DNA from: an uncultured Chlamydiae bacterium
GTDB lineage: Bacteria; Chlamydiota; Chlamydiia; Chlamydiales; JAJFMA01
Direction of reading: 5' to 3'
Assembly: GCA_963713615.1 (NCBI GenBank)
Contig: CAVQMM010000001.1
Location: forward strand, 1,728,001 to 1,792,000
Length of the DNA: 64,000 nt
Part shown: positions 46,252 to 46,573 of the stretch, piece by piece
How the letters are laid out: every line of letters starts with the position of its first letter
Position numbering within the stretch: the first letter of the stretch is position 1
The notes under the pieces: model-generated
Databases searched by the model: none
Told to the model about the DNA's origin: nothing
Seen by the model: the letters and a program-made list of their open reading frames with translations, nothing else
Translations under genes and position numbers: made by a program

Positions 46252-46281
46252 TTGACATAAATTGCAAGTTTTCGATATAAT
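46252..46281 (+). promoter_or_regulatory. Consensus sigma70/66 promoter of the arginine operon
   Basis: TTGACA-N18-TATAAT. Confidence 0.7.
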
Positions 46282-46326
46282 TCGTTTTGGTAGTGCCAAA
46301 AGGGCCTATCGCATTAGGTGAGAAAA

Positions 46327-46434
46327 ATGAATAGCATTCAACAACCAAGTTCAAGTGTACAAGCAGGCATCGCCTCTTGCTACCTCCATTTTTTTGATCA
46401 TTCCTCCCCTCTGGCCATCCGCGTCCGGCGGTAA
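46327..46434 (+). CDS. Candidate arginine-sensing leader peptide, 35 aa (absent from ORF track)
   Basis: MNSIQQPSSSVQAGIASCYLHFFDHSSPLAIRVRR*, with taggtgag RBS; ends CGC GTC CGG CGG TAA; followed by a pyrimidine-rich tract. Confidence 0.55.
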   Translation: MNSIQQPSSSVQAGIASCYLHFFDHSSPLAIRVRR

Positions 46435-46573
46435 AGGTCCCCTTTCCCTTTTTTCTTTTATTTAGTTTTTTTGACCCTACTTCAGCTGCTAAAGCCCTTT
46501 TCATTTGAATGGTTGTGCTTCGTAGCTGGCAATGAATAATTTTTAGGCCCTTTTGGCCATTTAGGAGTTTTTT

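Follow-up and report, generated by a model that had tools for sequence, protein, structure and literature searches.

A conserved family of leader reading frames ending in arginine codons precedes chlamydial arginine transporter operons: a probable arginine-sensing attenuator

Textbooks present arginine supply genes as controlled by ArgR or by a T-box. The locus described here raises the question of what governs such genes in a member of the Chlamydiota whose genome (3.97 Mb, 99.1% complete) yielded neither of the ArgR domains, PF01316 and PF02863; with no argR found in the genome, we rejected ArgR control of the operon. In the window, by which we mean the whole 64,000-nucleotide stretch of DNA that was analyzed, a short reading frame ending in arginine codons precedes an amino acid ABC transporter operon, and the same genome carries a Rho gene that scores above the profile cut-off. 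The leader belongs to a real and conserved family. Judging from sequence, we consider it an arginine-sensing attenuator, whatever its output, with a probability of about 0.85. For the output itself, Rho-dependent termination, in which a stalled ribosome would mask a C/U-rich tract, is the best single model, and we give it slightly better than even odds.

The leader and the operon behind it

The original prediction described a consensus promoter, a ribosome-binding site and a 35-aa upstream ORF (uORF) whose only Arg codons stand immediately before its stop, and all of these are present (Table 1). The promoter is the only promoter-like site that a scan found in 45500-47200. Transcription is predicted to start near 46287, which would give a 5′ UTR of about 40 nt that includes a Shine-Dalgarno (SD) site. 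The ORF list begins the leader frame at an in-frame GTG (46318), upstream of the ATG. The leader ORF matched nothing in Pfam or NCBIfam. Of the Arg codons, the genome uses CGG least (4.6 per 1000), and it yielded no gene for tRNA-Arg(CCG).

Table 1. Leader features and downstream genes, in window coordinates
Feature	Position	Strand	Details
Sigma70/sigma66-type promoter	46252-46281	+	TTGACA 46252-46257, 18-nt spacer, TATAAT 46276-46281; 12/12 match
Shine-Dalgarno-like site of leader ORF	46316-46321	+	AGGTGA
Leader ORF, 35 aa	46327-46434	+	Ser-rich; C-terminal R-V-R-R-stop; ATG 46327, TAA 46432-46434
C/U-rich, G-poor stretch, putative rut site	46372-46478	+	35 C, 46 T, 15 G, 11 A; 28 YC steps
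Putative sensor codons CGC-GTC-CGG-CGG	46420-46431	+	Sole Arg codons of leader: CGC 46420, CGG 46426, CGG 46429
Imperfect hairpin 3′ of tract	46482-46529	+	About -15 kcal/mol, z -1.65, without U run
ArtJ-like periplasmic binding protein	46574-47365	+	PF00497; SD AGGAG 46563-46567
Polar amino acid ABC permease	47365-48021	+
Polar amino acid ABC ATPase	48009-48740	+
argG	48752-49948	+	Above NCBIfam cut-off
Second argG	50020-51270	+	Above NCBIfam cut-off
argH	51267-52562	+	Above NCBIfam cut-off

A G-poor tract of about 50 nt had also been predicted downstream of the uORF. It is there, at 46435-46478 (36 of 44 nt are pyrimidines and four are G), but it is not only downstream: pyrimidine richness begins within the ORF (38 of 48 nt at 46372-46419), and the whole 107-nt stretch spans both the Arg codons and the stop. 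On the main contig, about 0.05% of windows per strand match or exceed its C+T content of 76%, and a folding model gave the tract at the uORF end a mean unpaired probability of 0.62. The hairpin that follows the tract might serve as a pause or 3′-end-protecting hairpin. In the same genome, uORFs with at least three Arg among their last five codons occur in 14 of 1451 upstream regions (about 1%), and a pyrimidine tract accompanies only the leader described here. The leader anatomy at this locus is more than chance.

Rfam returned nothing at gathering score for 45500-46700, and we therefore rejected a T-box or riboswitch; below that score there were only hairpin-driven microRNA matches to an intergenic repeat. 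This repeat, at 45960-46240, has direct and inverted copies with arms of 55-66 nt, is MITE- or REP-like, and has 179 matches genome-wide. Separately, a perfect 14-bp inverted repeat (46295-46308 / 46544-46557) links the 5′ UTR to the region before the transporter SD; in the model, this SD is opened in the full-length RNA (0.83 vs 0.24), and inspection of the homologs by eye turned up no such repeat.

A metatranscriptome contig is identical to 46322-46547, with zero differences, and attests presence only. Further contigs place the same or a near-identical organism in both metatranscriptome runs (X1 and X2), in which no contig covers the transporter gene or thrA. The RNA contigs end 16-19 nt past the leader hairpins (at 46547 here, and at 45655 in both studies for the divergent leader described below); because they are low-depth assemblies, blind to ends, strand and level, we did not use these ends as evidence of termination. 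The deepest RNA-library contigs within the 19.5 kb compared lie at 52985-53323, with a depth of 38-39 in both runs. They fall in a low-complexity 153-aa ORF (52884-53345, minus strand) without a Pfam match, and may represent a small RNA or a highly expressed gene.

The amino acid ABC and argG/argH genes that had been predicted downstream are present, argG even twice, but their assignment to arginine biosynthesis did not hold. The best PDB matches of the binding protein are the arginine-binding proteins 3DEL, 3QAX and 3N26. A profile search of the genome put neither ArgF nor ArgC over the cut-off, and a de novo arginine pathway was rejected, as the sole carbamoyltransferase is PyrB and ArgC falls far under the cut-off. 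Thus, the operon likely serves arginine uptake plus salvage by conversion of citrulline to arginine. The two tandem argG genes share only about 31% identity, and a third argG-like gene lies elsewhere (G000 C1 139837-141024), beside a tsaD-like gene.

Distribution of leaders across transporter clades

We searched 400 genomes of the phylum for the permease and obtained matches in 145. We then inspected 113 operon loci, consisting of 110 of the permease matches (30 + 80), two metagenome contigs and locus L021; the weakest rows and the majority of f36 matches were not among them. Both binding protein and permease were available at 103 loci, and a quick tree of the two from these loci resolved three main groups. 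As the homologs are related, the counts and p-values given below overstate the number of independent events.

The first group, the Arg clade, comprises 20 rows (SH-aLRT support 89 in this quick tree, and 99 for an inner set of 16). An Arg-run leader precedes 18 of its 19 assessable operons, as expected if Arg-ending uORFs are conserved upstream of homologous operons; one operon (L110) has none and one region is truncated. Among the 18 leaders, two were accepted by hand: that of L271, with its stop 291 nt upstream and so past the automatic cut-off, and that of L105, which is degenerate and ends F-R-L-G-R. In the sister clade (65 rows, support 99), the same layout precedes polar amino acid ABC operons with a His run in place of the Arg run, in 51 of 63 assessable operons (L121, L127 and L211-L286; 12 have none and two are cut off). 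The third clade, of 16 rows, has neither an Arg nor a His run.

A uniform automatic rule found Arg runs in 16 of 19 Arg-clade regions, vs 1.1 after shuffling, and His runs in none of them; it found His runs in 51 of 64 His-clade regions, vs 0.8 after shuffling. Its background is visible in the Arg matches to 7 of 64 His-clade regions (4.1 after shuffling) and to 5 of 19 Arg-clade regions read on the reverse strand. These background matches, together with the fact that translation of the leader is only predicted, are what could be said for the view that there is no regulator here: the ORF could have arisen by chance within a C/G-containing DNA or RNA motif that is conserved, or it could encode a small protein with a function of its own. 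We consider this quite improbable: start, SD and stop are kept in frame across several families, the run switches from Arg to His along with the transporter clade, and terminal Arg runs are as scarce in the genome's own upstream regions as stated above.

The surroundings of the leader are looser than the run itself. A promoter-like site matching at least 9 of 12 positions precedes 11 of the 18 Arg leaders; an SD-like motif is present in 13 of these 18 and in 46 of the 51 His leaders; and the distance from the leader stop to the next gene varies from about 50 to 290 nt, with no fixed spacing. At six loci (L103, L104, L108, L131, L102 and L133), a short inverted repeat surrounds the leader SD (TCGCA ... 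TGCGA; in L104, TTGCA ... TGCAA); this repeat might adjust initiation on the leader or serve as a protein-binding site. An argG gene was seen directly behind the transporter at 9 of the 18 leader loci, and three genomes (G037, G014 and G015) have the leader without any argG match; thus, the leader belongs to the transporter. We looked for leaders outside the Chlamydiota in 160 argG neighbourhoods (flanks of up to 6 kb, often cut) and obtained five matches that were the chlamydial leaders. Three other, weak matches (L040, L146 and L207) were dropped, being located downstream of argG. Four permissive Arg matches without a pyrimidine tract (L254, L275, L284 and L290) were dropped as well.

How does the leader relate to ArgR in the phylum? 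Apart from the genome of the window, 15 leader-bearing genomes were compared, and an ArgR match is absent from 14 of them, one of which (G006) is only 61% complete. The remaining one, G379, is the sole genome of the 15 with both. Its locus (L117) carries argR, ARG-box-like palindromes recognized by eye and an Arg-run leader, all before the ABC-argG genes, an arrangement of double control. Among small-genome f36 members, which are likely Chlamydiaceae and their close kin, argR lies directly beside the permease in five of the six tested, and the upstream regions of those five showed no leader. ArgR and the leader look like largely alternative controls, in what are few independent lineages.

For the sister clade, the His run predicts, on the leader's reading, a histidine transporter. 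The best PDB matches of its binding protein are the same ArtJ structures, with lower scores, so that best-hit annotation would label the clade arginine-binding. Fixed residue differences separate the binding proteins of the two clades, and several of them fall in motif regions that we take to be ligand-binding. If the leader works as proposed, its run would offer a substrate assignment for orphan chlamydial transporters.

Constraints on the leader and its likely output

The Arg leaders range from 15 to 52 aa in length and have only the terminal run in common, with no conserved residues upstream. Arg fills 72 of the 162 positions in the last nine codons of the 18 leaders vs 12 of 438 earlier positions, and it is the final codon in 14 of them; in 41 of the 51 His leaders, the last His lies no more than one codon from the stop. 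Each of the 72 terminal Arg codons is of the CGN type (24 CGC, 24 CGT, 20 CGG and 4 CGA), with CGG present in 14 of 18 leaders. AGA and AGG do not occur among them, whereas they account for 72 of the 182 Arg codons of the adjacent ABC genes. Over the ten codons before the Arg run, fourfold sites are C or T in 79 of 87 cases (0.91), vs 0.55 in genes, the share farther upstream in the leaders being 0.65; Ser codons are TCY in 47 of 56 cases, vs 0.34 in genes. The His family behaves likewise (fourfold sites, 264/322; Ser TCY, 109/133). In both families, bins from -45 to +33 around the stop have a C+T content of 0.72-0.81 and at most 0.14 G; the exceptions are the sensor-codon bin and the His-family bins from +13 to +33 (0.58-0.59). 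The tracts contain more U than C, a point against the Rho model. Given the variable peptide, the CGN-only Arg codons and the synonymous pyrimidine bias, the constraint appears to lie on the codons and the RNA, not on the peptide. The synonymous bias suggests that the RNA is under selection within the ORF, which would be expected if this RNA served to load Rho, and it speaks against an arrest peptide.

The original prediction had invoked ribosome stalling of the TnaC/SpeFL type. Nascent-peptide arrest by an S-F-R-R-R-R end, in the manner of TnaC, SpeFL or AAP, would let the exit tunnel sense free arginine, citrulline or ornithine, and S-F-R-R(-R-R) does recur at many leader C-termini, often with Arg as the last residue. 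Yet the lengths and upstream residues of the leaders vary, Ser and Leu before the run prefer pyrimidine codons, the CGN-only usage is a codon-level trait, and His and Asn/Gln runs appear in the same layout. We therefore regard peptide arrest as very improbable. Since the peptide is unconserved, the likelier sensor is tRNA charging at the codons.

In the Rho-dependent model that we favor, ample Arg-tRNA would allow the ribosome to pass the terminal CGN codons, terminate and leave, exposing about 100 nt of poorly structured C/U RNA across the ORF end and the tract. Rho would load on this RNA and release RNA polymerase ahead of the transporter gene. When Arg-tRNA is scarce, the ribosome would wait at the CGN codons, in the middle of the stretch, where it would mask the RNA and block Rho, so that the operon is transcribed. 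Rho is active in Chlamydia, according to the available text of PMC7755916.

The same sensor could also act without Rho or an antiterminator, if the stalled ribosome covered the 5′ arm of a weak intrinsic terminator. This terminator would be a mini-hairpin centred on the stop and followed by a U run, or, in His leaders, the hairpin past the stop; NusA might help. A stop-centred mini-hairpin of 3-4 G-C pairs is present in 9 of the 18 Arg leaders (shuffles: mean 0.7, maximum 5), with arms that differ among leaders (GGCG/CGCC, CGGC/GCCG, GCCC/GGGC, GCCG/CGGT) and, in several cases, a U run behind it. Because half of the Arg homologs have this element, intrinsic termination is a live rival. Hairpin-plus-U scores have medians of -6.0 kcal/mol for Arg leaders and -7.4 kcal/mol for His leaders, compared with -4.25 for 240 convergent gene ends of the same genome; as the leaders score no weaker than these gene ends, which are themselves weak, weak intrinsic terminators may be at work. 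Among the 18 Arg leaders, 6 score -8 kcal/mol or lower and 2 reach -10 kcal/mol; among the 51 His leaders, 21 score -8 kcal/mol or lower. Many His leaders have a hairpin beginning about 7-18 nt past the stop, and several homologs have hairpins downstream of the tract. Against this reading, none of the 51 His leaders has the mini-hairpin, and the window holds no intrinsic terminator, the best hairpin plus U run scoring -3.9 kcal/mol and the leader having only two G-C pairs at its stop. Intrinsic terminators usually have stems longer than 3-4 pairs. Nor does intrinsic termination explain the synonymous pyrimidine bias within the ORF. We judge it unlikely on balance.

Another possible output is translation or mRNA stability: a stalled ribosome might free the transporter SD or shield the mRNA from a nuclease, with mycobacterial polycysteine ORFs and Salmonella orf34 as models. 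The terminal-run layout resembles that of polycysteine attenuators (10.1101/834739, in its available text), pyrimidine tracts are able to pair with a purine-rich SD, and U-rich single strands may be nuclease sites. In an equilibrium model, however, stalling raised SD accessibility by more than 0.2 in just 4 of the 15 Arg leaders, and 3 of the 41 His leaders, with a located SD, and lowered that of the transporter SD in the window, so we rejected a general SD-sequestration switch. The variable spacing between leader stop and next gene also speaks against this output, which we think improbable. In the RNA folds, we saw no mutually exclusive antiterminator/terminator pair.

Further candidate leaders have other runs. 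A 40-aa leader with an Asn/Gln(/Cys)-rich end, a candidate Asn/Gln sensor, precedes a PF01235 sodium:alanine-family symporter (L291:2052-2174, minus strand; G000 C1 ~2937051-2937173) and is kept in 8 of 28 symporter homologs with upstream sequence. A 37-aa leader with a W-W pair (L292:986-1099, plus strand; G000 C1 ~1016785-1016898) overlaps the end of trpR and lies between it and a trpD-like gene, before a full trp operon; it is Ser-rich and C/U-rich and has a GGCG/CGCC mini-hairpin at its end. In the window itself, a 30-aa ORF with six Thr in seven codons (45870-45778, minus strand, and 45766-45674) stands before the divergent thrA-thrB-thrC and is likely a Thr attenuator; the leader folds well (z -4.1), its 3′ end is a 9-bp hairpin that no U run follows, and RNA-library contigs of two studies cover it. 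Tentatively, and at somewhat less than even odds, we suggest that environmental Chlamydiae share a lineage-wide, modular, structure-free attenuator, in which Ser-rich leader codons would form the Rho loading site and the run would be swappable (Arg, His, Asn/Gln, Trp, perhaps Thr). On this modular reading, the starved ribosome would itself be the antiterminator.

If these proposals are true, arginine and probably asparagine/glutamine join the amino acids sensed by attenuation, by a minimal design without alternative hairpins, and arginine supply genes gain a regulatory alternative to ArgR. Leaders of this kind would tell which host-derived amino acids intracellular Chlamydiae monitor.

Relation to known systems

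The comparisons below draw on the available portions of the cited sources. In the literature searched, which leaves most subscription journals and attenuator surveys outside, no Arg-run leader for arginine supply genes is described, and the available text of PMC8632094 (including its supplement), PMC13236596, PMC4833913 and PMC10274678 does not describe the element. The family is thus probably undescribed so far. For Chlamydiae, that literature contains no validated leader peptide (PMC7755916): C. trachomatis trpL is unvalidated (PMC7755916), and, in the part available, a 2010 survey finds almost no predicted chlamydial attenuator with a function (PMC2965389). Within the phylum, Chlamydia offers arginine control of similar transporter genes, in that ArgR represses glnPQ in C. 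pneumoniae (PMC2175317), by a DNA-binding repressor and not a leader.

Classical attenuators such as E. coli trpL, hisL and thrL (PMC7755916) likewise have a short, SD-preceded ORF with a cognate codon run before cognate supply genes, and are ON in starvation, as predicted here. Arginine is not among the amino acids with such leaders in the literature searched. The present leader differs from them in that its run sits at the stop codon, in that neither an antiterminator/terminator pair nor a strong terminator was found (the window has no G-C-rich intrinsic terminator with a U run before the first gene), and in its host phylum, the Chlamydiota.

Sensing through Arg codons is itself already known. 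In Salmonella orf34, ribosomes short of arginine pause at a pair of adjacent Arg codons (PMC6386406), and S. aureus rbfL (PMC13009471) is, like the leader here, a small upstream ORF that senses arginine via rare Arg codons. However, rbfL uses AGA/AGG and represses under arginine shortage, whereas our leader uses CGN and is predicted to be ON. Another small ORF, E. coli argL (10.1101/511675), stands before argF, overlaps it and lowers its expression. Both rbfL and argL overlap the start region of the next gene and lower its translation, unlike the leader here.

The closest anatomy is that of the Cys-run leaders of Actinobacteria (PMC1262725; 10.1101/834739), which have a run at the stop, no conserved terminator and poly-pyrimidine motifs, and for which Rho was proposed in 2005 (PMC1262725). 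They are leaderless and act by freeing the downstream ribosome-binding site (10.1101/834739), whereas the leader here shares the terminal cognate run, has a 5′ UTR with an SD, shows no conserved SD-hiding duplex or switch, and has a C/U tract conserved on both sides of the run. For the arginine operons of Actinobacteria, the available text of PMC1262725 reports no RNA element.

The proposed mechanism has precedent in tnaC, speFL (orf34) and cruR (PMC12360218), in which a stalled ribosome shields a rut site that lies within a uORF or adjoins it; in cruR, the rut is inside the uORF. The chlamydial leader resembles them in having Rho and a C-rich, G-poor, weakly structured tract that a ribosome at the uORF end is predicted to mask. 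These systems need a conserved arrest peptide and a small ligand, whereas the peptide here is unconserved; and tnaC and speFL induce catabolic genes, whereas the genes behind the leader described here supply the amino acid.
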